DNA from: a virus | Taxonomy: Duplodnaviria; Caudoviricetes | Reading direction: 5' to 3' (one strand) | Length of the DNA: 38,493 nucleotides | Virus record (IMG/VR): IMGVR_UViG_3300037307_000164 | Span: 1-38,493 of that record | Shown here: positions 3 through 38,198 of the stretch, one piece after another | Layout: the number at the start of each line of letters is the position of its first letter | Position numbering within the stretch: position 1 is the first letter of the stretch | Made by a program: the position numbers and the translations under genes | Notes under the pieces: model-generated | The model's input: the letters and a program-made list of their open reading frames with translations, nothing else | Told to the model about the DNA's origin: nothing | Database searches by the model: none

Positions 3-1781
3 GCGGGTGTCGCGCCGACGGTCGCACGCACCGAGAACCAGTCGATTCAGGTGCCAGCCGGGGCGGTCACGCTGACTGGCACGGCCCCGCAGATCAACCG
101 TCTGCTGACGGTGCCTGCCGGCGCGGTCACGCTGACCGGCACTGCGCCAACGCTGGCGTATTCGTGGTTCGTGCAGCCTGCCGCTGGCGTGGTTGCGCTT
201 GCTGGCGTTGTTCCGACGGTCGATGTTACCAACGCGCAGACGATTTCGGTGCCTGGGGCGTCGGTTGTTCTGGCTGGCGTTGTGCCGACCGTATCTCGCA
301 CGCAAAACCAGAACCTTACGATTCCCGCTGGAGCGGTGACGCTGGCTGGTGCAGTTCCCCTGGCTGGCCAAAGCTTCAGCATTCAGCCTCCTGCGGGTTC
401 AGTGCTTCTCGAGGGATCTGCCCCGACTGCGCGCACGACCCTCAGTGCTACTCCTGACGCTGGATCAGTCGTCATTACCGGGGTCGGGCCGGTTGTTGGG
501 CAGACGCTCTCCGCACATCCTGGTGCTGCGTCCATTTTGCTGGCTGGTACAGCCCCGCAGGTGGACCGTACACAGAATCAAAGTATCCAGCCAGGTGCAG
601 GTGCGGTCACGCTCACTGGCGTCGTGCCAGTTCAAGACACGCAGATCGTCAATGTCCCAGGCGCGCTGCTGGTCACTGGCGCTGTGCCAGCTGCTGGCCA
701 GTCCTTCACTATTCGCCCGACAGCGGGTTCGGTCGTTCTGGCCGGCATCGAACCCTCGGTAAATACCACACAGTCTGGAGAGATCCGCCCCTTTGGTGGC
801 GCACTGACCCTCACTGGTGCAGTTCCCTTGGTTGGGCAGTCGGTCACTGTGCGTCCGCCGGCGGGTTCGGTGCTGCTGGCTGGCGTGGTGCCGCTGGCGG
901 GCCAGTCGGTCACCGTACGCCCGAATGCGGGCAGTGTGCTACTGGCTGGTGCTGCGCCGCTCGCTGGGCAGTCCTTCGTTGCGCAGCCGCCTGCTGGCGC
1001 CCTGTCTCTGACGGCCACCGCGCCGACTTTGGGCGGTGAGTACTTCGTACAGCCTGCTGCTGGCGCGGTCACGCTGGTTGGTGTCCTGCCTACCGTCAGC
1101 CGGACGCAAAATCAAGTGGTGCAGCCGCCGGCTGGCGCAATTGCGCTGGCCGGAGCGCTGCCGACCACACTGTACGACCAGAAGCGCGAGCCTGCAGGCG
1201 GCCACATCCAGATCGCTGGCGTTGCCCCGCTGGCTGGGCAATCGGTCACCATTCGGCCGGCTGCCGGCTCACTCGCTCTAAGCTCTGTTGCGCCCAGCGC
1301 TACAACTTCCGTCGCGGACGAGATCCGGCCGTTGGGCGGCGCACTGCAGTTCGTCAGCGCTACACCTACGCTGGCCTATTCGTGGTTCATCGCTCCAGCA
1401 GCCAGCTCTGTTTCGCTGCTCGGCGGTGCGCCCAGCGTGCGCGAAGATGTCACTGTGCCTGCCGGGGCACTGGCGCTGCAGAGCAGCTCGCCGGAGCTCT
1501 CTCGCACTGAACATCAGTTCATCGAGGCCGCTGCCGCGTCGGTGCGTCTTGATGGCGCATTGCCGACGGTAGATCGTGAGGATCACCGCACCATTGCGCC
1601 GGTTGCAGGCGTCTTGACACTGACTGGGCGGGCGCCGAATCTTACTTTTGGCGGTCAAGCAGTGCAGAGCCGGCGCCGCTCGGCGCACAGTGATCACGGA
1701 CCGCGCTTGCTTGAATCGCAGCGGGGCGCACGTACAGCGACTTTGTCGGCAAGCCGGCGGCGCACGACTACTGGAGGTTGA
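3..1781 (+). CDS. Repeat-rich fibre/filament-like virion protein (5'-truncated)
   Basis: The frame is open from the window start (AGVAPTVARTENQSIQVPAGAV...). It has >25 tandem ~20-aa repeats, consensus P-x-A-G-[SA]-[VL]-x-L-x-G-x-x-P, and an Arg-rich C-terminus. It lies next to the head genes. Confidence 0.6.
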   Translation, partial: AGVAPTVARTENQSIQVPAGAVTLTGTAPQINRLLTVPAGAVTLTGTAPTLAYSWFVQPAAGVVALAGVVPTVDVTNAQTISVPGASVVLAGVVPTVSRTQNQNLTIPAGAVTLAGAVPLAGQSFSIQPPAGSVLLEGSAPTARTTLSATPDAGSVVITGVGPVVGQTLSAHPGAASILLAGTAPQVDRTQNQSIQPGAGAVTLTGVVPVQDTQIVNVPGALLVTGAVPAAGQSFTIRPTAGSVVLAGIEPSVNTTQSGEIRPFGGALTLTGAVPLVGQSVTVRPPAGSVLLAGVVPLAGQSVTVRPNAGSVLLAGAAPLAGQSFVAQPPAGALSLTATAPTLGGEYFVQPAAGAVTLVGVLPTVSRTQNQVVQPPAGAIALAGALPTTLYDQKREPAGGHIQIAGVAPLAGQSVTIRPAAGSLALSSVAPSATTSVADEIRPLGGALQFVSATPTLAYSWFIAPAASSVSLLGGAPSVREDVTVPAGALALQSSSPELSRTEHQFIEAAAASVRLDGALPTVDREDHRTIAPVAGVLTLTGRAPNLTFGGQAVQSRRRSAHSDHGPRLLESQRGARTATLSASRRRTTTGG

Positions 1782-26671: not shown

Positions 26672-26682
26672 AGGCTGGCACG

Positions 26683-27276
26683 ATGTTGCAAGTCGGTGGC
26701 ACCAACGGTGCGCGCGTTGAGTCGGTGACGGTTACGAGATCAGTGCTGCGGGGGTGCGTCGATCAGTGCCTCGCCACTGACCTGAGCGGATTGGCGGTAG
26801 ACGCAACGGATCTGCACCGAGTCTCGCGCAAGGTTGTGATGTCTTTAGAGCGCAATGACCCTAGCACTGCCGCTCGGATGTTGCGCGCGTGGGCTTCGAT
26901 GGCGCTCGCGATGGTCGGTCGAATCGAATGGTCGAGGGCTTATCAGTCTGGTGTCGCTGACGCAATCACGAAGATGAACGAGCCGATCGATCTACCGCCG
27001 TTGCGCGGAACGACGAAGACGTATTCGGGAGGCAAGCGAGGCCGCAAACACTATGTCCACGACTGCGGATCGTTTGGTCGCTTGACGCTGCCTCAGATGG
27101 CGTCGACGGCCGGATGTTCAGAGCCAGCGATTCGCAATCGGCTGAGGTCTGGGTTAACCCCAGAGCAGTCGATCGTTGCGGGCGCTGTGCTGGCTAGACA
27201 GAAAGCTGCCGCGTGGCGCGAACTGCGCAGGCAGGAACTACGGGATCCATTCGGACTGCACTCACAGTCCGATTGA
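26683..27276 (+). CDS. Hypothetical protein with C-terminal HTH-like DNA-binding segment
   Basis: GRLTLPQMASTAGCSEPAIRNRLRSGLTPEQ resembles phage HTH modules. The start codon is uncertain. Confidence 0.5.
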   Translation: MLQVGGTNGARVESVTVTRSVLRGCVDQCLATDLSGLAVDATDLHRVSRKVVMSLERNDPSTAARMLRAWASMALAMVGRIEWSRAYQSGVADAITKMNEPIDLPPLRGTTKTYSGGKRGRKHYVHDCGSFGRLTLPQMASTAGCSEPAIRNRLRSGLTPEQSIVAGAVLARQKAAAWRELRRQELRDPFGLHSQSD

Positions 27277-27336: not shown

Positions 27337-27375
27337 GCCCCCCGCGAGTTACGGCTCCCGGGGGGCTTTTTCTTT
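27337..27375 (+). terminator. Intrinsic terminator ending the late region
   Basis: GCCCCCCG...CGGGGGGC stem followed by TTTTTCTTT. Confidence 0.85.
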
Positions 27376-27414: not shown

Positions 27415-27442
27415 TTGCGCCATATGACAAATGTGCTATACT
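27415..27442 (+). promoter_or_regulatory. Strong sigma70-type early promoter
   Basis: TTGCGC-16 nt-TATACT with an extended -10 (TGc), directly after the terminator. Confidence 0.75.
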
Positions 27443-27740: not shown

Positions 27741-28751
27741 ATGAGAATCGAACAGGCTGTCCGCACGATCAAGCTGGCGGTGCGGATGCGGGAGCCGGTC
27801 TTGCTCGTAGGGGCACCCGGGGTCGGCAAGTCAGACGTGGCGACCCAAGTAGCCGAGTCGCTCGGCTACGACATGATCCTGTCCCACCCCGTTGTGTCCG
27901 ACCCGACCGATTTCAAGGGGCTGCCGTTCGCATCCGAGGACCGGGCAAGTGCGTCGTTCCTGCCGTTCGGCGACTTGAAGCGGGCGCTCGACGCGGACCG
28001 CCCGACAATTTGGATGTTCGACGATCTCGGGCAGGCACCACAGGCGGTGCAGGCTGCGCTGATGCAACTGTTGCTGGCCCGCGAGGTCAACAGCAAGCGG
28101 ATCAGCGACCGCGTGACGTTTGTGGCAGCGACTAACCGCCGGCAGGACCGCGCCGGAGTGGGCGGGCTGTTGGAGCCGGTCAAGTCGCGATTCGCGTCGA
28201 TCATCGAGATCGAGGCGCACCGTGACGACTGGTGCCGGTGGGCTGGCTCGGCCGGTGTCGCGCCGGAGGTCATCGCGTTCATCATGCTGCGCCCCGAGGC
28301 GTTGCACGAGTTCGTGGCGACCGCCGACATGACCAACAGCCCGAGCCCGAGGGCGTGGTCGAAGGTCAGCAAGTGGCTGCAGGCCGGGATCGAGGAGCGG
28401 GACATGCTCCAGACGTTCACGGGAACGATCGGTCTTGGCCGCGCGTCCGAGTTCGTCGGGTTCATCAAGATGTTCCGGGGGCTCGTCAAGCCGGATCAGA
28501 TCCTGCTGAACCCGGAGACCGCCCCGGTGCCGGAGGATATGTCGGCCCAGTACGCGGTCGCATCGGCGTTGGCGCACATCGCCAACGACCGGAACTTCGG
28601 GCGGATCCACCGGTACGCGCTGCGCCTGCCGCGCGACATCGGCGTGTTGCTCGTGAAGCAGTGCGAGCGTCGCAACCCGAAGATCGTCGAGTCGCCCGAT
28701 TGGAACGAGTACGTGCTCGGGCCGATCGGTCAGGAAGTTCTGGGTGCCTGA
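27741..28751 (+). CDS. MoxR-family AAA+ ATPase
   Basis: Walker A GAPGVGKS, DPTDFKGLP, Walker B WMFDDLGQA, sensor-1 AATNRRQDRAG, R-finger KSRF and sensor-2 SPRAW. Confidence 0.9.
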   Translation: MRIEQAVRTIKLAVRMREPVLLVGAPGVGKSDVATQVAESLGYDMILSHPVVSDPTDFKGLPFASEDRASASFLPFGDLKRALDADRPTIWMFDDLGQAPQAVQAALMQLLLAREVNSKRISDRVTFVAATNRRQDRAGVGGLLEPVKSRFASIIEIEAHRDDWCRWAGSAGVAPEVIAFIMLRPEALHEFVATADMTNSPSPRAWSKVSKWLQAGIEERDMLQTFTGTIGLGRASEFVGFIKMFRGLVKPDQILLNPETAPVPEDMSAQYAVASALAHIANDRNFGRIHRYALRLPRDIGVLLVKQCERRNPKIVESPDWNEYVLGPIGQEVLGA

Positions 28752-28874
28752 AGTACACTCTGGCGGAATGAACAGCAGCGTGGGCGACTGCAACCGGTGG
28801 ACGTGCAATCTCCACCCGTGACCGCCCCGCCGCCAGCGTCCATTCGCAGTAATCACCACACAAGGGGAAGCAAC

Positions 28875-29792
28875 ATGAACGCCAATATCGCCGGCCTTGC
28901 CGAGAAGGCCATCGTCATCAACCTCACGATTCACCAGTGGGGAGCGGTTCGCTCGGATGAACGCGCGGATAGCGCGGTGCAGCGCGAGTTCGGCAACGAC
29001 GCACGCGCAGGAGGCTGGCGCAAGAATTTGCTGCCGCAGAACCCGCCCGAGTGGCAGGCGGTGAAGGCGGCGGCCAACGAGATCCGAAAGCTGCACTACT
29101 GGTACACGCAGCCGTGGTCGGAGGGCGGTCGGGTGCTGGCGAGCGCCATGTACCCGGAGTACTCCGAGAAGATGCGCGGCGCGATCCGGTCGTACGACGA
29201 GGCGTGCGACAAGTTCGCCGCCGAGTTCGATCGGCTCAAGGCCGAGGCGATCGTGCTGCTCGGCGGGCTGGCCCGAGAAGACGACTACCCGGTCGCACGG
29301 GTGGTCCGCCGCAAGTGCGCGGTGACGATCGGGACTTCGCCCCTGTCGGTCGGTGACTGGCGGGCGAAACTGTCCCGCGAATCGATCGAAGAACTGCAGC
29401 GCGGCTACGAGCAGATGATCGAGTCTGCGTTGCAGACGTCCACGGCAGACCTGTGGAGCCGGCTGCGCGAGGCGGTCGAAGATCTGCGCACAAGCGTGGC
29501 GACGTACCAGAAGCGTATCGACGAGCAGCAAGCCGGGGTGCCCGTTCGGGCCGTGCTGAAGAACGGCACGTTCGACACGCTGGCTGAGTTGGTCGAGGTG
29601 CTGCCGACGATGAACATCGCCGGCGACCCGTCGCTCGACGGTCTGGTCGAGGCGGTAAAGCAGTCGCTGTGCTCGGTCTCGATCGAGGACGCGCGCGTCG
29701 ATGCGGAAGGCAGTGAGTCGCTCAGGGCCGACCTGATCAAGTCGGCGGATGACATCGTCAGCCAGATGGCTGCATTCATGGGGGCGCAGTAA
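28875..29792 (+). CDS. Helical partner protein of the MoxR/vWA module (DUF3150-like)
   Basis: AGGGG RBS before ATG 28875. Pattern L.I..W....D...K.LL...HY..T.PW...G.R.L...DYP...L..MNIAGDP.L. Sits between the ATPase and vWA genes. Confidence 0.65.
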   Translation: MNANIAGLAEKAIVINLTIHQWGAVRSDERADSAVQREFGNDARAGGWRKNLLPQNPPEWQAVKAAANEIRKLHYWYTQPWSEGGRVLASAMYPEYSEKMRGAIRSYDEACDKFAAEFDRLKAEAIVLLGGLAREDDYPVARVVRRKCAVTIGTSPLSVGDWRAKLSRESIEELQRGYEQMIESALQTSTADLWSRLREAVEDLRTSVATYQKRIDEQQAGVPVRAVLKNGTFDTLAELVEVLPTMNIAGDPSLDGLVEAVKQSLCSVSIEDARVDAEGSESLRADLIKSADDIVSQMAAFMGAQ

Positions 29793-31060
29793 TGGACAAG
29801 CGTGAGCAGGCAGCGCGTCGGGTGATGGACGCGCGGATCGACGTGATGTTGACGGACGTGTTTTTCGGGGCGCTGCTGGCCCGGTTGAAGATGGAGCCGT
29901 CGGCCGACGTGGGCTATATGTCGACCGACGGTGTCCGGGTCAGGTACAACCCGGAGCGGGTCGCCGAGGCACCGATCGCGGAGTTGCGGTCGGTGCTGAG
30001 GCACGAGGTGCTGCACTGCGCGCTCGGGCACGTCTGGCGCAGGGAGGGTCGCGACCAGCAGGTGTTCAACGCGGCCTGCGACCACGTGGCGAACCTGCTG
30101 CTGAAACAGCACGGGCACTACGTGGGCAGCGACTGGCTATGCGACCAGAGGTTCTCCGGCATGTCGGCGGAGCAGGTCTACAGCATCCTCCGGCAGGAAG
30201 CGGCGGACCAGCAGCAGCAGGAGCAGCAGCAGCAGCAGGAGCAGGACGGTCAGGACGGTCAGGACGGGGCTCAGGAGCCGCCGCAGGAAGGGGCGGGCAC
30301 CCCGGGGGCCGGTGAGCCCGAGCAGGGGCAGCAGGAGCCGTCTGGTGGCAAGCCGGACCTCGGGCCGGGCGGGATGGACGACCCGGTCGATGGGGAAGGC
30401 GACGGCGAGGCGGACGTGTCGAGCGAGTGGGAAGCCGCCACGGTGCAGGCAGCGATGCAGGCGTCGAGGCAGGGCGAGGACCCGGGGATGTTCAAGTCGG
30501 CGGTCGAGCAGGCCCGCGCGTCGGGCTCCGATCTGCCGGCAGAGCTTCGCCGGTTCATCGCTCAGGTCACCGCGAACGACTACACGTGGACCCGGCCAAA
30601 CGTCCGGTACGCGGCGAGCGGGTTTTACCTGCCCGCGCTGCGCGACGAGTCGCTCGGCCCGATCGTGATCGTCCGCGACACGTCCGGGTCGATCACCGAC
30701 CGGGTGATCGGCCAGTTCAACGCCGAGATCGCGTCCGTGATCGACGAGGCCCGCCCGAGCCGCATCATGGTGCTCGACGCGGACACGGCGGTCGCTGGGG
30801 TGACCGAAATCGAGCGCGGCGACAGCCTGCCGGCTACGCTGCGGGAAGCGTACGGGCGCGGCGGCACAAACTTCCGGGCTGCGTTCGACTGGGTCGAGCA
30901 AAACATGACCGGCGAGCCACCCGCAGCGCTGGTCTACCTGACCGATCTGGACGGTCGGTTCCCGAAGTCGGCACCGGAGTACCCGGTGCTGTGGGTCTCG
31001 ATCGCCGGGATCAAGGCAGTACCGTTCGGCGAGGTGATCGCCTGCGCTGACACGCAGTAG
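29792..31060 (+). CDS. Zincin-like metallopeptidase + vWA domain protein (DUF2201-like)
   Basis: STDG...YNP, HEVLH (HExxH) and N.ACD..AN. A Gln/Gly/Glu-rich linker follows, then MIDAS DTSGSI, GRGGTNF and YLTDLDG. Confidence 0.9.
   Translation: MDKREQAARRVMDARIDVMLTDVFFGALLARLKMEPSADVGYMSTDGVRVRYNPERVAEAPIAELRSVLRHEVLHCALGHVWRREGRDQQVFNAACDHVANLLLKQHGHYVGSDWLCDQRFSGMSAEQVYSILRQEAADQQQQEQQQQQEQDGQDGQDGAQEPPQEGAGTPGAGEPEQGQQEPSGGKPDLGPGGMDDPVDGEGDGEADVSSEWEAATVQAAMQASRQGEDPGMFKSAVEQARASGSDLPAELRRFIAQVTANDYTWTRPNVRYAASGFYLPALRDESLGPIVIVRDTSGSITDRVIGQFNAEIASVIDEARPSRIMVLDADTAVAGVTEIERGDSLPATLREAYGRGGTNFRAAFDWVEQNMTGEPPAALVYLTDLDGRFPKSAPEYPVLWVSIAGIKAVPFGEVIACADTQ
30207..30268 (+). repeat. CAG-rich and CAGGACGGT repeats encoding the poly-Gln/QDG linker
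   Basis: gac cag cag cag cag gag cag cag cag cag cag gag cag gac ggt cag gac ggt cag gac ggg. Confidence 0.8.
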
Positions 31061-31242: not shown

Positions 31243-31494
31243 ATGTCGAGAGCCGTCGGATCCGAAGAGCTTATGCTGCTGCAGGAGCGTCTGGCGCAGG
31301 CCAAGCGCAGCGTGCGCGTCTACTCGCAGGCCGGGTTCGTGCCCCGGTCTTACCGGTGGCCGTGCCCGATCGAGTACATCGAGGCCCGCAAGAACGCGGA
31401 AGGGCTGTGGGAGATGAGAGTCGGCATCAGTGACGCCAAGCGCGCCCACGGCAAAGGGGCGCTGGTTGTCGTCGATGGGAGAGGTGTGTCATAG
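31243..31494 (+). CDS. Hypothetical protein
   Basis: GAGGGAG RBS before ATG 31243, 83 aa, typical codon usage. Confidence 0.65.
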   Translation: MSRAVGSEELMLLQERLAQAKRSVRVYSQAGFVPRSYRWPCPIEYIEARKNAEGLWEMRVGISDAKRAHGKGALVVVDGRGVS

Positions 31495-31533
31495 ACCAAT
31501 CTGTGACATGATGGTCATTCACTGGGGGAAACC

Positions 31534-31704
31534 ATGAACTTCAATCAAGGTTGGCGAGACCTGCTCGACGAGCAGGCGCGCCGGGAGGAGCGTCGCGACC
31601 GCGCCGAATGGAGATCACTGGCCGTCAGGCTGGTGATCGGCACGTGGATAGTGGTCTGCGTGCTCGTGTTCGCTGGATGGATTTTGTACGGGTGGCCGGC
31701 GTGA
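31534..31704 (+). CDS. 56-aa membrane protein (not in ORF track)
   Basis: GGGGG RBS. MNFNQGWRDLLDEQARREERRDRAEWRSLAVRLVIGTWIVVCVLVFAGWILYGWPA. GTGA overlap with the next gene. Confidence 0.6.
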   Translation: MNFNQGWRDLLDEQARREERRDRAEWRSLAVRLVIGTWIVVCVLVFAGWILYGWPA

Positions 31705-32023: not shown

Positions 32024-34006
32024 ATGATGTTTAAAGATCCTGTTTTTACTCGTTTGCATTACCCGACTGAGGACGAGGCAAGTCGCTTTATTTCACGCGA
32101 GATTGATACGGTCGGCAACAAGGCCAAGCAACTCTTGTTTCGTGAATTCATCCAGAACGCTGCGGAAGCTAATTCCAATAAGATTCATATCGGCATCGAG
32201 CCGGATCATAATGGGCAGGACAGGCTGACCATCTGGAACAACGGGGAAGGGTTTGAACCGAGCAAGTTCAACGATTTTCTTCAGTGTTTTGGGCGCACTC
32301 ATCGGAGTGTAAACGTCAATCACGGTATTGGCGCGAGGTTGATTGGGCTCGCAGTATCACCGGCGGGGATGATCGTCGACACGTGTCGTAACGGGACTGT
32401 GCTTCGCGGCAGGATTGAAAAGCGTGATGAAGTATACGGTGCTGAACCGTTCTCAAATGTGTCAGCCGAATTCGCTGCTGACATTCGCTCGCATGACTGG
32501 ACGCGCACGCAGTTTGTTGGCGTTACGCCGACCAGTACCCCGAAAGAGGTAATCGGGTCGATCGTCAACATTACCGATCTTGACAACAGCGAGTCTTTCC
32601 GAGTTGGTGGCATCGCTGAATCGGTGATGCATCGGTATTTTCGCAAACCGCATGGTCTGCGCATCTTCATCGACAACGAGTTGTCATTGATGAGGCAGGG
32701 CACCGGAAACGCTGCCGCGCGCGAGCTTGGCGATATGTTGTCATTCATTACGCTCAACGACGGGCGCGTAAACCCCCCCGAAATTGCACCAACGTACGAG
32801 TGTGTCGTAAGTGGTGACCTGAAAATCCACTATTCGATGTTCCCGAAACGCTCGTTCGACACGGACTCTGGATCGACAAGGCTGGGGCGTTTGGTTTACA
32901 ACGTCGAATTTAATCAGGCCGCCGGCGGTGTGGTGCTCGACAACGAGATTTTGCGACTTGTTAAAAACAATGCCCGTCGTGGCAACAACGCGTGGCTTTC
33001 GTTTGCAAACAGTGCGCGATTCGGCACTGTGGCTCGTCGTACTTTCGTGTTTGTTGAAGTGGTCGGTAATCTGCGCGATCGCATAGTGTGGGCAAACGAT
33101 CGCACTTCCGCCAATTGGAAAAATGGCCGTGAGGTCACATTGGAGTTTTTCGCGAAGGAAGTCGCTTTAAATCTGCCCAATTTTATTACAGCAGAAATTG
33201 CCAAGGAACACCTTGAAAATCAGCGACAGGCAAGTTATACGCGATACCTGATCGACATGATGCATCGGCTTGGGTTCCGGCCTCGCTCCAAAATAGCAAG
33301 CAAGGACGGAGAAGAAATTGGCGGCGGCAATGTCGTTGTGGATATTGAGCGCAACAACACTAATGCAATTACGCGGGGGAAGCGCAATCCCGTGGACGGC
33401 GGGTCGGAAAGTAACAAGCCTGCGAGTTACCGGAAGTCGTTGCCGTTGCCGAAAATATTCGTGTATTTTGACCCAAACGCCGAAGATTACTTATCAAAGC
33501 CTTGGCGCAACGCCGGCTCTCGCCATTCGCCAGTGTGCCTCACGCACAATGCGTTGTATGCCGGCGAAGGGATTGTGACCGAAATTGAGATCCATGTTGA
33601 TTGCACGAAAAAAAATAATCGCTACGTTGAAGACTTGTACAACGAAATGTACACGCGGTTTTTTTGCGAGGGTCCGCCGCGTCCGGGGTGGTGTAAGACG
33701 GATCTCGATCGGGCGATGAAAGAAAACGCAATGTCGTTCGATACGGTGTACGAAAACGCGGTTTGCAATTTTATGCAAAGGTACATTGGCGGCAATATCC
33801 TTTATGAGCTTGCGGCTGCACGGGACTATGCTGCGAATGAAGCGGATTACGTTCGTATGCTTGTAAGCAACCCGGCCATGTGCGCGAAGCACATGATCTC
33901 CGCAACAGACTCCAAAATCAGCAACATCAACGCGGCGATCTGGAAGGAGATTGCGTCATGCTACAACGGCCGTACGACATCGAATAGCGATGCAATCTAT
34001 GAATGA
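32024..34006 (+). CDS. GHKL-superfamily ATPase (Hsp90/MORC-like N-domain) with unknown C-terminal region
   Basis: N box REFIQNAAEA, G1 box IWNNGEGF, G2 box HGIGAR and T box WTRTQF. Visibly lower GC than its neighbours. Confidence 0.7.
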   Translation: MMFKDPVFTRLHYPTEDEASRFISREIDTVGNKAKQLLFREFIQNAAEANSNKIHIGIEPDHNGQDRLTIWNNGEGFEPSKFNDFLQCFGRTHRSVNVNHGIGARLIGLAVSPAGMIVDTCRNGTVLRGRIEKRDEVYGAEPFSNVSAEFAADIRSHDWTRTQFVGVTPTSTPKEVIGSIVNITDLDNSESFRVGGIAESVMHRYFRKPHGLRIFIDNELSLMRQGTGNAAARELGDMLSFITLNDGRVNPPEIAPTYECVVSGDLKIHYSMFPKRSFDTDSGSTRLGRLVYNVEFNQAAGGVVLDNEILRLVKNNARRGNNAWLSFANSARFGTVARRTFVFVEVVGNLRDRIVWANDRTSANWKNGREVTLEFFAKEVALNLPNFITAEIAKEHLENQRQASYTRYLIDMMHRLGFRPRSKIASKDGEEIGGGNVVVDIERNNTNAITRGKRNPVDGGSESNKPASYRKSLPLPKIFVYFDPNAEDYLSKPWRNAGSRHSPVCLTHNALYAGEGIVTEIEIHVDCTKKNNRYVEDLYNEMYTRFFCEGPPRPGWCKTDLDRAMKENAMSFDTVYENAVCNFMQRYIGGNILYELAAARDYAANEADYVRMLVSNPAMCAKHMISATDSKISNINAAIWKEIASCYNGRTTSNSDAIYE

Positions 34007-34559
34007 CCTCGTGATTGCTCGTGAGCATCCTGACATGATGCAATACGTCGATGCATTGCAAAAAAAGTTCAACGCAATGATCGCGTTTATTCCAAAGGCT
34101 GGGATCGAGAAGGGCATTGCGAATCGTCAGATTTTAATCGCAATAGTGAACGGGTGGCCTGCGGGCTATCTGTTCCACGGAGCGTTTCGGCCTGACATGG
34201 TAATCACGCAGTGCGCTATCGAATTCGACTTGCAACGCCAAACGTACGGGCTGTCGCTTGTTCAGGCGTTGATGCAAGAAGCCGCCGCTCGTGGCGTTCG
34301 TTCAATGAAAGCGCGATGCGGGTCAGATCTGGACGCTAATCGCTTTTGGTCTGCCGCAGGGTTTGTATGCATTGCGCACTTGCACGGCGCATCAACCCGT
34401 GGGAGGGTGCTTAACGTCTGGGAAGCTAGGATAACGCCGGGATTGTTCGTGCCCGAGCAAATCGTCCCGTTCGATAAGCGCAGCAAAAAATCATCTGGGC
34501 ACTTTTCACGGTTCGCTCGCCCGAAAAAACAACTTTTGCGAATCGGCGATCTTAAATAG
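33999..34559 (+). CDS. GNAT-family acetyltransferase
   Basis: Motif A variant LQRQTYGLSLV and motif B ANRFWSAAGF. Overlaps the end of the GHKL gene. Confidence 0.8.
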   Translation: MNDLVIAREHPDMMQYVDALQKKFNAMIAFIPKAGIEKGIANRQILIAIVNGWPAGYLFHGAFRPDMVITQCAIEFDLQRQTYGLSLVQALMQEAAARGVRSMKARCGSDLDANRFWSAAGFVCIAHLHGASTRGRVLNVWEARITPGLFVPEQIVPFDKRSKKSSGHFSRFARPKKQLLRIGDLK

Positions 34560-34622
34560 CAAAGTTACGTCGTGCGAGCGGACGTTAAACGCTCGCACCA
34601 ACATCAACCGGGAGGGGGGATC

Positions 34623-35441
34623 ATGGAACAGGCGACCGTTCGGTTCGGGATGCCGGACGTGGATTACCACGCGGTGCCCGCGTTCAGCGCGAGCGCTGCA
34701 CGAATGATTGCGAAAGCACCGGCTCTCTATCGCGAGTTCGTAAATGCTCCCGAGGCTCCATCCCCTGCGATGCGGTTCGGGACTCTTGTTCACGCGATGG
34801 TGCTTGAGCCGGACAGCGCGGCCGATCGGTACGTGGTGGCGAAGCAGTTCGGTCGCACGAAGGCCGAGGTCGAGGCACGGCAGGCGTGGACCGCAGAGTG
34901 CGAGTCCCGCCGGCTGACGATTGTGGCCGAGGACGACTGGGCTCGCGCGCAACGTGCTGCGGCATCGGTGATGGCTCATCCGTCAGCGTCGAGGCTTCTC
35001 GCGCATATGGTTCGCGAGGTGTCAGTGTTCTGGACCGACCCCGAGTTCGGGATTCCATGCAAGGCAAGGCTCGATGCGTGGGATCGTCGCAGGCACATCG
35101 TTGCGGACCTGAAGACCTGCCGTGATGCGAGCCCGGAAGGGTTCGGAAAAGCGGCGTGGAATTTCGGGTACTTGATGCAGGCGGCGCACTATCGGGACGC
35201 GTCGGTGGCAGCCTACGGTGATCCTCTGGCCGCGTTCGTGTTCATCGCTGTCGAGACCGAGCGCCCGCACCTGTGCGCAGCGTACGAGGTCGGGCAGCAG
35301 GAGATGGAGATCGGCGCTGCGGCTCTGCGCAAGGCGAAAGCCGCATACGCGGACGCGTTGCAGACGGGGATCTGGGCAGGCTACAGCCAGTTCGTTGAGC
35401 CGCTCAGTCTTCCGGGGTGGGCGTATCGGGGGGACGAGTGA
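34623..35441 (+). CDS. recE: Exonuclease VIII / RecE-like PD-(D/E)XK nuclease (DUF3799-like)
   Basis: YHA....SAS, AMRFGTLVHAMVLEP, EVSVFW.D, CKARLD, DLKT, Y.MQAAHY and FVFIAVE. Confidence 0.88.
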   Translation: MEQATVRFGMPDVDYHAVPAFSASAARMIAKAPALYREFVNAPEAPSPAMRFGTLVHAMVLEPDSAADRYVVAKQFGRTKAEVEARQAWTAECESRRLTIVAEDDWARAQRAAASVMAHPSASRLLAHMVREVSVFWTDPEFGIPCKARLDAWDRRRHIVADLKTCRDASPEGFGKAAWNFGYLMQAAHYRDASVAAYGDPLAAFVFIAVETERPHLCAAYEVGQQEMEIGAAALRKAKAAYADALQTGIWAGYSQFVEPLSLPGWAYRGDE

Positions 35442-35902
35442 GGCCGACCTACGAAACTGAAGAAACGCGACGCGCTGAGTGGGTCGTCGCGTCGGCGCTC
35501 GCGAGGATCTGGAATTGCGACATGGTCCGTACAGAGAAGTACTCGGCCGCTGACTGCGTGGCTCGTTGTGCAGGCACCACGCTGGCAGTTATCGAAATCA
35601 AGTGCCGGTCTCACTCGTTCGGCCATTTCCCGACTTTGTCTATCTCGCACAGCAAGTGGAACGAGTTGCTTGTTTGGTCACTAGAGGCGAAAGCTCCGGC
35701 GCTTTTAGTGATTCAGTGGCAGGACAGGCTCGGCATAGTTGTCGTCGAACCAGCGGAGGGGAAGTATGAAATCTCATTCGAAGGGGCACGAAGAAATCGC
35801 GGCGATCCAAACGATCTTGAACCGATGGTTCAAGTCACCCTGTCTAGTTTTCTAATCATCGACGAGGTACAACATGAGCAACGTAGCAACTCTTCGCTCT
35901 GA
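35438..35902 (+). CDS. PD-(D/E)XK nuclease-like protein
   Basis: ADC...IEIKCR motif, LVIQWQD and RNRGDPNDLEP. GTGA overlap with recE. Confidence 0.65.
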   Translation: MRPTYETEETRRAEWVVASALARIWNCDMVRTEKYSAADCVARCAGTTLAVIEIKCRSHSFGHFPTLSISHSKWNELLVWSLEAKAPALLVIQWQDRLGIVVVEPAEGKYEISFEGARRNRGDPNDLEPMVQVTLSSFLIIDEVQHEQRSNSSL

Positions 35903-36656
35903 CCTGACCGCCATGCGTGCTCAGGTGCAGGCGGCACTCCCCGAGAACGTCAGTGTTGATCGGTTTATCCGCACCGTGATGACCGCAGTGCAGGTCAACC
36001 CGACGCTGATGGAGGCGGATCGGTCAAGTGTTCTGGCAGCAAGCCTTGAAGCGGCCACTGACGGGCTGATCCCCGACGGTCGCGAGGGCGCGATCGTTCC
36101 GTACCGCACCAAGGGCGGAAAGGTGCGCGCCCAGTGGCAGCCGATGGTCTGGGGTCTGGTGGCGCTGGTCCGCAGATCTGGGGAACTGCTGGAGATCAAC
36201 CCCGGGACCATCTACGATGGCGAGGAGTTCGAACACTGGGTCGACGAAGATGGGGTCCACTTCAAGCACCGCCCGACGTTCGTCGGTCGCGGCAGCCCGG
36301 TCGCCGTGTACGCGTTCGCTCGCACTCGCGATGGCGGCCGGTATCTGGAAGTGATGGGGTGGGACGAGATCGAGAAGTTTCGGTCCAAGTCCAAGGCGAC
36401 CGCAGAGGGCACTCCGTGGGCCGAGTGGACCGAGCAGATGGCTCAGGCTCGTGCGATCAAGCGGCTGTGCAAGCGGCTGCCGATGCGTGCTGATGCAATC
36501 GATGCGATCCGTCGTGACGACGAGCGCGAGGCGGGTATCATCAGCGGATCGGTCGCGGAGCCCAAGCGCAGCCCCATCTCGATGATCAACAGCGAGGTCG
36601 CCGGCGAGCCCGTCAGCGACGAACCGACAGAGCAGGAGGCCACCAATGGAAATTGA
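35874..36656 (+). CDS. recT: RecT-family single-strand annealing recombinase
   Basis: ALPENVSVDRFIR, GLIPDGREGAIVPY, GLVALVRRSG, PWAEWTEQMA and IKRLCKRLP. Confidence 0.92.
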   Translation: MSNVATLRSDLTAMRAQVQAALPENVSVDRFIRTVMTAVQVNPTLMEADRSSVLAASLEAATDGLIPDGREGAIVPYRTKGGKVRAQWQPMVWGLVALVRRSGELLEINPGTIYDGEEFEHWVDEDGVHFKHRPTFVGRGSPVAVYAFARTRDGGRYLEVMGWDEIEKFRSKSKATAEGTPWAEWTEQMAQARAIKRLCKRLPMRADAIDAIRRDDEREAGIISGSVAEPKRSPISMINSEVAGEPVSDEPTEQEATNGN

Positions 36657-36987
36657 TGATCTGTCGAGCAGGTTTGGATCGCTGTCCCGGTTGTCGATTC
36701 TGCTAGCGGTGTCGCAGAGCAACATGTCTCACTGGCGACGTCGTGGCAGCATCCCGATCGTTCAGCAGATGAGGATTGAGGTGCTGACCGGCGGGCAGCT
36801 TAAAACCGACCGGACCCTGCTCGCCAAGGTCGCGCCAGAGTTGGCCGCTTTGCTCGCAGCGTACGAGCGTATGAGCGCAGAGGAGAAAGCGGCCGCCTTG
36901 AATGCGGTTGACGGGATGAGAACCAAACGGTCGAGATCGATCGCCGACTCGATCGTAGATGTCACTCGCGATTCGCTGGTCGGGTGA
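36646..36987 (+). CDS. Cro-like HTH regulator
   Basis: FGSLSRLSILLAVSQSNMSHWRRRGSIP..QQMRIEVLTGGQLK. AGGAGG RBS. Confidence 0.8.
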   Translation: MEIDDLSSRFGSLSRLSILLAVSQSNMSHWRRRGSIPIVQQMRIEVLTGGQLKTDRTLLAKVAPELAALLAAYERMSAEEKAAALNAVDGMRTKRSRSIADSIVDVTRDSLVG

Positions 36988-36990
36988 TGG

Positions 36991-37026
36991 AAAAAAGCGC
37001 CCCGGGGAGGGAGGGCCCCGGGGCGC
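36991..37026 (-). terminator. Intrinsic terminator on the minus strand
   Basis: Perfect 11-bp stem GCGCCCCGGGG/CCCCGGGGCGC preceded on + by AAAAAA (U6 on the minus strand). Confidence 0.7.
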
Positions 37027-37214
37027 ACCACCACCACCTGACCTAGTCGCTGGGGGCGACCATCCCGAAGGGGAGCGCGGGGGAGAAGCCGCGCTGCAGG
37101 TTGTTCACACGAGGGGAGGGCGCGCGAACAGCGCGATTGTACATGGACAAAATCAACCAGCGAATATCGTGTCGGCCGATTGGTTAAATGAACAGTGTTT
37201 AGGGGAAGAGAAAA

Positions 37215-38198
37215 ATGCCTGATCGCATTATCCGCGACGAGTTGCTTGATTCCGAAAAATACCTCGACCTGCCGTCCGATTCACACCGACTGCTATTTAT
37301 CCACTTGATTTTACTGGCCGACGATTTGGGAAATACCGAAGCGGGGACAGGGTTTTTGCGCCGCCGTGCAATGTGCGGCTCTACGCCTGCTGCGATTGCC
37401 GCTTTGATCTCCCATCTGGTCGACGTCGACCTCATCCGCCTGTACTCGGTAGGCGATAAACAGTACGTACACATACCAAAGTTCCGGCAACGCTTGCGGT
37501 ACATGACTAGACTTCGGCATCCACGGCCACCTGAGCATGTAGAGTGCAATGAAATCAAGGACTTAATATTGAAAAAGTCCGACTACAGTCTGACTACAGT
37601 CAGACCAGAGTCAGACTACAGTCAGACTGTAGTCGGCAAATACGAAGAGAAGAGAAGAGAAGAGAAGAGAAGAGAAGAAGAACCCCCCAGACCCCCCGCC
37701 GACAAGTCGCCGGGGGGATCGGTTGTCGGGGTGGCCGGCAAGGAGCCGGGGTTAGCCTCTGCAAGCCCCGGCCGTTGCGCTGGCACCACACTGCCGGAGG
37801 GAGAAAGTCAGGAGAGCCCGCCGTCGGGGACCCTGCCCATCAAGGATGCCCCTGCAAGCCACCAGAAGGGGCCTAGAAGCGATCGCCGGGGTGGGGTGGC
37901 TACCCCCGGTGCTCCCGGGGCCGCCAATCGATCTGAGGCCGTTCTGCTGCCCGACTGGATCAGCCCGGAGACGTGGGGCGAGTTCCTGCGGTTTCGGAAG
38001 GGGGCGAAGAGCCCGATGACCGACTTCGCGCAGAAAAAGGCGATCGGCGTTTTAGGAAAATTGAGGGATCGTGGATTTAATCCCGATGCCGTCATTGAGC
38101 AGTCGATTATCAACGGGTGGAAAGGGTTTTTCCCGATTCGGGAGAACAACGACAAAAGGGGGAAGCGGTATGAGGAAGACGAGAAATACGATGCGTGA
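37215..38198 (+). CDS. Phage replication initiator protein
   Basis: N-terminal wHTH-like MPDRIIR...LILLADDLG. C-terminal LPDWI..E.W.EF..FRK....PMT...IEQSIINGWKGFF. Contains an internal iteron array. Confidence 0.82.
   Translation: MPDRIIRDELLDSEKYLDLPSDSHRLLFIHLILLADDLGNTEAGTGFLRRRAMCGSTPAAIAALISHLVDVDLIRLYSVGDKQYVHIPKFRQRLRYMTRLRHPRPPEHVECNEIKDLILKKSDYSLTTVRPESDYSQTVVGKYEEKRREEKRREEEPPRPPADKSPGGSVVGVAGKEPGLASASPGRCAGTTLPEGESQESPPSGTLPIKDAPASHQKGPRSDRRGGVATPGAPGAANRSEAVLLPDWISPETWGEFLRFRKGAKSPMTDFAQKKAIGVLGKLRDRGFNPDAVIEQSIINGWKGFFPIRENNDKRGKRYEEDEKYDA
37576..37636. repeat. Iteron array (putative replication origin)
   Basis: Five tandem 11-bp units AGTCnGACTAC (agtccgactac, agtctgactac, agtcagaccag, agtcagactac, agtcagactgt) plus a partial sixth. 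Confidence 0.8.
37644..37678 (+). repeat. (GAAGA)7 purine microsatellite
   Basis: Seven perfect copies immediately downstream of the iterons, encoding EEKRREEKRRE. Confidence 0.9.

Follow-up and report, generated by a model that had tools for sequence, protein, structure and literature searches.

In cellular pairs such as RavA-ViaA, CbbQ-CbbO and NorQ-NorD, a hexameric MoxR-class AAA+ ATPase docks on a partner with a von Willebrand factor A (vWA) domain, whose metal-ion-dependent adhesion site (MIDAS) takes hold of an acidic residue on the client. Those MoxR-vWA pairs that have been characterised act as chaperones on partner proteins, with CbbQ-CbbO and NorQ-NorD serving their own clients, and they are housekeeping systems rather than systems of mobile elements; to our knowledge, these cellular remodellers have neither an adaptor-fused zincin that is conserved and active nor a DUF3150 partner. 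Here we analyse three consecutive genes of a virus of the Caudoviricetes, the IMG/VR record IMGVR_UViG_3300037307_000164, whose entire length of 38,493 bases (linear class, CheckV completeness estimate 43%) is referred to below as the window. The genes encode an ATPase (gene 1), a DUF3150-like protein (gene 2) and a zincin metallopeptidase joined by a linker to a MIDAS vWA domain (gene 3), and so combine a MoxR-class motor with a MIDAS adaptor, as do RavA-ViaA, CbbQ-CbbO, NorQ-NorD and midasin. This trio is likely an early-acting counter-defence machine. An earlier note, made from the letters of the window alone, had singled out the locus as an undescribed system; its observation is confirmed, and its interpretation is supported in part, as regards linkage, motifs, location and, within the published extracts drawn on here, the defence role of homologues.

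Parts of the trio have been recorded in phages before. Coliphage N4 gp24 and gp25 belong to the same two families (E 2.7e-55 and 9.7e-68 to our gene-1 and gene-3 profiles) and are adjacent genes in a non-structural region; we found no published function for them. The window shares the traits of this type of pair, namely an ATPase of PHROG 1297 and AAA_5, a DUF2201 partner above cut-offs and linkage of the two (36/37 loci, see below), but N4 differs in having a DE Walker B and in being without a DUF3150-like gene. The group 2.2 jumbo phages have a MoxR and peptidase-vWA pair with the domain plan of genes 1 and 3 (Iyer et al. 2021, PMC7824862), which was proposed to act in virion assembly and is accompanied by no third gene in the passages of that paper used here; the ATPase of jumbo phage Atu_ph07 matches gene 1 at E 1e-11. 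Domains of the trio type are merely listed in the relevant passages of PMC5735904. The pair is catalogued; for the three-gene form, as for a mechanism, we found no paper in the open-licence PMC and bioRxiv literature. Nor is the trio peculiar to the window phage: thousands of mobile elements carry it, and the window locus is an ordinary example of a so far unexplained variant. The gp24/gp25 pair occurs in hundreds of cultured phages and the gene 2 family comprises more than 11,000 clusters, yet we found no mechanism in print.

Linkage and genomic settings of the trio

We inspected 160 loci around relatives of the ATPase (about 104 groups), namely the 80 best from each of two sets, 184 viral and 169 genomic loci. 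All three genes are present in 138 of them, in the orders ATPase-DUF3150-peptidase (115), ATPase-peptidase-DUF3150 (13) and DUF3150 first (10). After removal of 45 loci with less than 2.5 kb upstream or less than 3.5 kb downstream, the three genes were found together on one strand in 112 of 115 (53/55 viral, 59/60 genomic), which bears out the linkage presumed in the earlier note. Loci seeded with gene 3 (the best 80 of 550, of which 37 had 5 kb on both sides) contained the ATPase in 36 of 37 cases and gene 2 in only 21; within these gene-3 loci, gene 2 never occurred without the ATPase. Because of this difference, and with gene 2 missing from 15 of the 36 pair loci as well as from N4 and Bas54, the ATPase and the peptidase-vWA protein are the core of the system, and gene 2 is an accessory that is nearly fixed in the clade of the window.

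The trio is found in non-structural phage arms, on conjugative plasmids and in loci resembling integrative and conjugative elements (ICEs). Where phage loci show packaging genes, these lie mostly upstream on the opposite strand (TerL 13/15, TerS-like 12/12, portal 7/7), and the co-oriented neighbours include an SNF2 helicase, a sigma factor, ParB and DnaB; the non-structural location proposed from the window thus holds among relatives. Bacterial trio loci carry TraM, DUF4138 or VirB4. Among plasmids, 92 records match gene 1 (31 of them typed conjugative) and 62 match a single member of the gene-2 family that served as query, compared to 495 and 3 cultured phage records, respectively. The best plasmid match is conjugative and has the trio amid recT, ssb, small open reading frames (ORFs) and a methylase. 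The nearest relatives of gene 1 reach about 47-50% identity on plasmids versus at most 32% in cultured phages.

These settings bear on the proposal, made for the jumbo-phage pair by analogy to Acidianus two-tailed virus (passages of PMC7824862), that the proteins are a virion assembly chaperone and a maturation protease. The presence of the pair in many N4-like phages (495 phage records match gene 1) would suit it, but the closest relatives sit on plasmids and in ICE-like loci, the module lies outside the structural arms, and the window phage encodes an S49 head protease of its own (Pfam and PHROG scans). Since virion-less elements carrying the trio need no assembly factor, the proposal is weakened, and together with the Bas54 data below we find it scarcely credible.

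One Cloacimonadales contig (L094, L095, L096) has three similar trio copies at distant places.

The three proteins

Gene 1 contains the complete AAA+ motif set ascribed to it: Walker A GAPGVGKS at residues 24-31, Walker B IWMFDD (D94, D95), sensor 1 AATN, the arginine finger VKSRF, and PSPR. The FDD reading of Walker B in the earlier note is correct, but it is not an oddity, as DD occurs in 114 of 116 clade rows; the DE of the other two rows probably comes from N4 and the trio phage MinM2, both of which are in the set and read DE, as does Bas54. Gene 1 thus departs from the canonical DE of MoxR-vWA chaperones, and DD marks a sub-clade. Among 7,995 scored candidates, 2,489 are relatives at E≤1e-10. 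Gene 1 is 28% identical to N4 gp24 and 30% to Bas54 bas54_0063 (E 6e-20); as a single query, it retrieved no viral loci. Its sole sequence match among solved structures is midasin (E 8e-14). A quick ATPase tree was uninformative, with N4, Bas54, MinM2 and Vcrx089 on long branches. The defence models of PADLOC gave no full-length match to the trio, only a P-loop fragment match to IetA.

Gene 3 matches DUF2201_N (E 5.7e-39, 134.8 bits, cut-off 23.2) and DUF2201 (E 3.6e-25, 88.9 bits, cut-off 26.4) in Pfam. The HExxH peptidase and MIDAS vWA domain read from the window are both there, as HEVLH at residues 71-75 and as DTSGS/T359/D385. In the predicted model, an alpha/beta domain at the N terminus is followed by a linker of low confidence and a vWA fold (Z 13.4, root-mean-square deviation 2.5, 137 aligned). 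We found 2,237 relatives among 7,998 scored; bas54_0055 of Bas54 is 23% identical to gene 3 (E 5e-23). The motifs are intact family-wide: the zincin residues H71, E72, H75, H80 and D97 are kept in 101 of 111 relatives and the MIDAS in 111 of 111, so that gene 3 has the intact MIDAS within a vWA fold that marks MoxR-vWA partners. The relatives are non-redundant, and in about 10 of the 111 the H-E-H-H-D pattern is broken, with the MIDAS kept in all. Sequence matches of the N-terminal domain to M48 and MJ1213 are weak (E 0.015-0.15), and the fold lists are filled by the vWA domain. The linker was described as glutamine-rich, and has 25% glutamine here, but this is private to the window protein (family median 8%); low complexity is the conserved part. 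The TAATG overlap reported for genes 2 and 3 is present, and an overlap of 1 or 4 bases occurs in 29 of 75 adjacent gene-2/gene-3 pairs among relatives. The label 'HNH endonuclease' of PHROG 1314 in RefSeq and PHROGs (N4 gp25, L002:5188-6330) is rejected, as the domains are DUF2201_N and DUF2201. Complex prediction with the ATPase, the zincin domain, the vWA half and gene 2 scored 0.00 in both runs, with controls not folded, and counts neither way.

For gene 2, a start at ATG 28875 with a GGGGA ribosome site gives 305 residues, whereas the ORF caller had GTG 28797. The length of the 'helical protein' of the earlier note stands, but it is not purely helical: residues 1-156 form an alpha/beta half that is followed by a C-terminal helical bundle. 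Direct Pfam and PHROG searches found no family, only a sub-threshold coiled-coil motif, and gene 2 itself has no match to PF11348 at E≤0.01, hence 'DUF3150-like'. This label holds via relatives gathered from ATPase neighbourhoods, of which 41 of 100 family members match PF11348 at E≤0.01 (best E 6.1e-9), and via predicted structure (a DUF3150 cluster at TM 0.82 in the Atlas and, in BFVD, a DUF3150 protein at E 9.5e-15). The family has 11,114 cluster representatives at E≤0.001; gene 2 alone as query retrieved only itself, and nothing among cultured phages. Foldseek gave no PDB match at E≤0.001, and the VIA comparison gave generic bundle matches over residues 166-305 (best Z 11.3, root-mean-square deviation 3.5, 130 aligned), which are under the bar for bundles and lie in the helical half. 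Profile matches to apolipoprotein A-IV were dismissed as helical noise. The conserved residues are arginines (R71, R86, R196, R274, R284), Asp, Asn and aromatics, with no conserved His or Cys, and because of this, judging by sequence, a binding or scaffold role fits better than an enzymatic one.

Bas54 homologues, the IncC sister system and the case for a probable counter-defence role

The E. coli phage Bas54 (MaxBurger) encodes homologues of genes 1 and 3, bas54_0063 (PHROG 1297) and bas54_0055 (PHROG 1314, HExxH and MIDAS intact). They differ from the window genes in being unlinked (3.7 kb apart, opposite strands) and in having no DUF3150-like gene with them, and a separate small gene, bas54_0140, is also needed. 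Our account of this phage is limited to text passages, section 8 and supplement rows of the HIDEN-SEQ study (PMC13716836). There, Bas54 becomes sensitive to DS-28, a defence of strain CFE311, when either bas54_0140 or the MoxR gene bas54_0063 is knocked out; the latter is dispensable on K-12 and required against DS-28. According to supplement rows of PMC13092281, DS-28 consists of a hypothetical protein and a HEPN nuclease.

The peptidase homologue bas54_0055 is absent from the main-text passages of this study, but its insertion profile is telling. It is listed as 'Non-essential' in the reference library, where 81 of 86 sites were hit. Among the sites listed, 24 of 25 internal ones persist on K-12, and 75 of 82 do so on CFE303 (counted by eye); on CFE311, in contrast, 81 of 82 internal sites have zero reads, and four sites in the last 19 bases carry all but 16 of the counted reads. 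These 3'-end reads mask the loss at gene level, where the log2 fold change on CFE311 is −2.20, versus −7.23 for bas54_0063. The depletion is not due to polarity, since the flanking genes 0054 and 0056 retain insertions on CFE311. For bas54_0063, 27 of 30 listed sites persist on CFE303. Unlinked as they are, bas54_0055 and bas54_0063 share one host-specific requirement. This requirement supports a counter-defence machine and argues against the virion-assembly proposal, insertions in both homologues being tolerated on K-12 and CFE303. The host-defence role conjectured in the earlier note is thus supported by knockout for the ATPase homologue and probably, by the insertion data, for the peptidase-vWA homologue. 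Since phage, host and cloned defence all exist, the overlooked insertion profile of bas54_0055 opens the question to a direct test.

In file 9 of the same supplement, the rows of bas54_0055 and bas54_0063 are identical in tabs S8 and S9 (CFE303 and CFE311), although the two hosts differ in the per-site data. Tab S8 may have been duplicated, and we therefore relied on the per-site tabs. In these, bas54_0051 (L165:30885-31334), which shares strand and cluster with the peptidase gene, has lost all internal insertions on CFE311 and not on CFE303, a loss that sites at the 3' end hide in the gene-level statistic (adjusted p 0.195). The small Bas54 genes 0051, 0052, 0140 and 0150-0152 were considered as DUF3150 fragments and rejected on comparison.

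We consider it on balance probable that a MoxR ATPase ring and a MIDAS adaptor engage a defence protein, which the tethered zincin cuts. The trio would be expressed early in infection; a bacterial defence protein would be seized and remodelled by the ATPase together with its zinc-peptidase/vWA partner and then cut, with the long linker allowing the zincin to reach and cut the substrate as it is pulled. Small, fast-evolving genes may choose the defence protein attacked, which would fit bas54_0140, and the DUF3150-like protein may be an optional subunit, acting as a scaffold or a delivery arm for targets.

The pair could also be an activator rather than a destroyer, in which case it would fold, mature or clip small anti-defence proteins of its own element, such as bas54_0140, and affect defence indirectly. 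This would be in line with the characterised MoxR-vWA pairs, which are chaperones, and NorQ-NorD and the midasin MIDAS are among the fold matches. The joint need of Bas54 for bas54_0140 and the ATPase, as given in the extracts, suits client and chaperone equally, and the MIDAS is invariant where HExxH is lost in about one relative in eleven. Yet the remaining relatives keep the protease residues, and the pair is maintained in unrelated phages and plasmids without a visible common client, the neighbour clusters being patchy. We judge an activator unlikely.

A second line of evidence for the counter-defence machine comes from IncC plasmids. In pVCR94, an AAA_5 gene and an unknown gene are followed by ssb, bet and exo, and then by one gene of DUF3150 type and one with the HExxH-linker-MIDAS plan (the numbers vcrx089-095 were assigned here from gene order). 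The hde operon (vcrx089-093; Roy et al. 2020) and the genes downstream of it thus show the same three-part design within a region that serves anti-defence and includes a recombinase pair, and vcrx094 shares a transcript with hde operon genes, according to the extracts available. Deletion of vcrx089-090 lowered transfer 25-fold against a type I system (passages of PMC7498323) and raised restriction 424-fold for EcoBI and 906-fold for EcoKI (passages of PMC11602122). In contrast to the window, the set is CobS/CobT-type, has no significant profile match to genes 1-3, and its phenotype maps to the ATPase and vcrx090. Vcrx090 did not match the profiles of genes 1, 2 or 3, orthology of gene 1 with Vcrx089 was rejected as direct profile comparisons with IncC proteins were not significant, and the window trio has neither the CobS-type ATPase with CbbQ_C nor the Vcrx090 partner on which IncC anti-restriction depends. 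On sequence grounds, the IncC set is the same design in a different (CobS/CobT-type) sub-family. In Pseudomonas phages, genes annotated as 'vcrx089' correlate with infectivity in a preprint seen in part (10.64898/2026.02.22.706922), a correlation only, with the labels as given there.

The recombination genes in these regions raise the alternative that the trio is a DNA-clearing or host-takeover protease, which strips proteins such as restriction complexes or nucleoid proteins off incoming DNA for replication or recombination, with protection as a by-product. Eukaryotic Wss1/SPRTN zincins, which act with Cdc48/p97, are a model for such a function. It would suit the co-oriented SNF2, ParB, DnaB, RecT, ssb and methylase neighbours, the RecE/RecT-like genes 3' of the trio in the window, the several arginines retained in gene 2, and the extracts on the IncC sister operon, which guards against type I restriction and contains ssb-bet-exo. 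Speaking against it, the rows consulted describe DS-28 as a HEPN nuclease system, Bas54 can do without its pair on K-12 and CFE303 in the HIDEN-SEQ extracts, and Pfam and fold searches found no DNA-binding domain in the three trio proteins. DNA clearing therefore appears distinctly improbable to us.

Several points weigh against a counter-defence machine that cuts its target. Substrate, cleavage and expression timing are inferred for all family members, the degenerate HExxH of some relatives implies that cutting can be dispensed with in some cases, ATPase activity may be reduced by the DD Walker B, and no small gene lies inside the trio in the window. The Bas54 data speak for the pair and not for the trio, since its homologues are distant (30% and 23% identity), have a DE Walker B and come without a gene-2 relative, none being found in Bas54 or N4. 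The link of bas54_0055 to DS-28 itself is an inference, because CFE311 has other defences and 27 genes are significant on it, and bas54_0055 does not occur in the strain and plasmid files of the supplement. In IncC, Vcrx089 is a CobS-type protein with CbbQ_C (phrog_249) without a significant match to the gene-1 profile, and the tested deletion takes in vcrx090, which is no part of the trio.

As a tentative extension, which may well prove too broad, the system could be a programmable ATP-driven protease common to thousands of phages, plasmids and ICEs, with a MoxR and zincin-vWA core, DUF3150 in many lineages, and small swappable adaptors aimed at different defences, the HEPN nuclease in the case of Bas54 and type I restriction in that of the IncC sister system. 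If so, mobile elements would have their own form of adaptor-guided proteolysis, serving as a counter-defence platform of general use. The majority of known anti-defence proteins are single inhibitors of small size, and a remodeller-protease that is driven by ATP and can exchange its specificity would, if real, be a strategy unlike these.

The locus within the window

All assigned genes of the window are on the + strand. Head and tail genes (to 22,897) are followed by lysis genes, small ORFs, a terminator-like site, the trio and three small genes, and then by a low-GC (guanine-cytosine content) GHKL ATPase with GNAT, RecE/RecT-like, Cro-like and replication-initiator genes (Table 1). No terminase, integrase or CI was seen among the 44 window ORFs scanned.

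Table 1. Positions of the trio, its motifs and signals, and neighbouring genes in the window
Feature	Position	Strand	Evidence or remark
576-residue ORF ahead of head genes	51-1781	+	no Pfam, PHROG or NCBIfam match
198-residue ORF ahead of terminator-like site	26680-27276	+	no Pfam, PHROG or NCBIfam match
Intrinsic-terminator-like hairpin and T-tract	27353..27375 (hairpin 27353-27367)	+	would part late/lysis genes from trio
Candidate promoter	27415..27442	+	sequence; weak -35 TTGCGC, 16-nucleotide spacer, extended -10 TGcTATACT (27434)
Gene 1, MoxR-class AAA+ ATPase, N4 gp24 family, 336 residues	27741..28751	+	Pfam AAA_5; phrog_1297 E 1.8e-68
Walker B of gene 1	28020-28025	+	
Gene 2, DUF3150-like accessory protein, 305 residues	28875..29792	+	AlphaFold2 pLDDT 92; relatives and structure matches
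TAATG stop/start overlap, genes 2/3	29790..29794	+	would couple translation
Gene 3, zincin metallopeptidase, linker and MIDAS vWA, 422 residues, N4 gp25 family	29792..31060	+	DUF2201_N/DUF2201; phrog_1314 E 1.2e-89
HEVLH of gene 3	30002-30016	+	
Low-complexity linker of gene 3	~30191-30406	+	
MIDAS vWA domain of gene 3	~30644-31057	+	
Two small orphan genes adjoining the trio 3' end	31243-31704	+	83 residues; 56 residues with hydrophobic stretch
HicA-like protein, 81 residues	31701-31946	+	PADLOC E 2e-14
GHKL ATPase (660 residues), overlapping GNAT acetyltransferase	32024-34559	+	C-terminal part of ATPase without assignment; GC 0.51-0.52
RecE-like exonuclease, PD-(D/E)XK nuclease, RecT, Cro-like and replication-initiator genes	34572-38198	+	co-oriented with trio

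The earlier note had the trio higher in GC than the tail genes, far from morphogenesis genes and right behind an early promoter. At 0.66-0.69, its GC does exceed that of four tail genes (0.56-0.58), but these core tail genes are the outliers, with head, tail-fibre and lysis genes at 0.61-0.65. The trio begins 4.8 kb past the last tail-type gene, with the lysis cassette and the terminator-like site intervening, but on the same strand. Six terminator-like sites in the region compare with a shuffle mean of 3.2, so that the one at 27353 is a candidate only. A sigma-70 consensus scan of the region found no promoter and also missed the extended -10-like site, whose TGcTATACT is the sole match to this pattern on both window strands, the pattern having been chosen post hoc, after the site was seen; we regard this promoter candidate as plausible. 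No conserved DNA was found upstream of the trio across the loci of relatives, and Rfam gave no family near it, only three weak matches far below gathering scores. A 566-residue antisense ORF (27831-29531) was taken to be a shadow of the high third-position GC (0.86-0.90).

The two small orphan genes behind the trio, which have no family match in Pfam and PHROG scans, are candidates for specificity factors. No HicB match accompanies the HicA-like protein among the scanned ORFs. As its GC is low compared to 0.66 in the trio, the GHKL ATPase/GNAT pair is likely a recent insertion, and possibly defence or counter-defence cargo. The pairing of the trio with recombinase genes in the window is reminiscent of the IncC hde region and of a Simplicispira plasmid.

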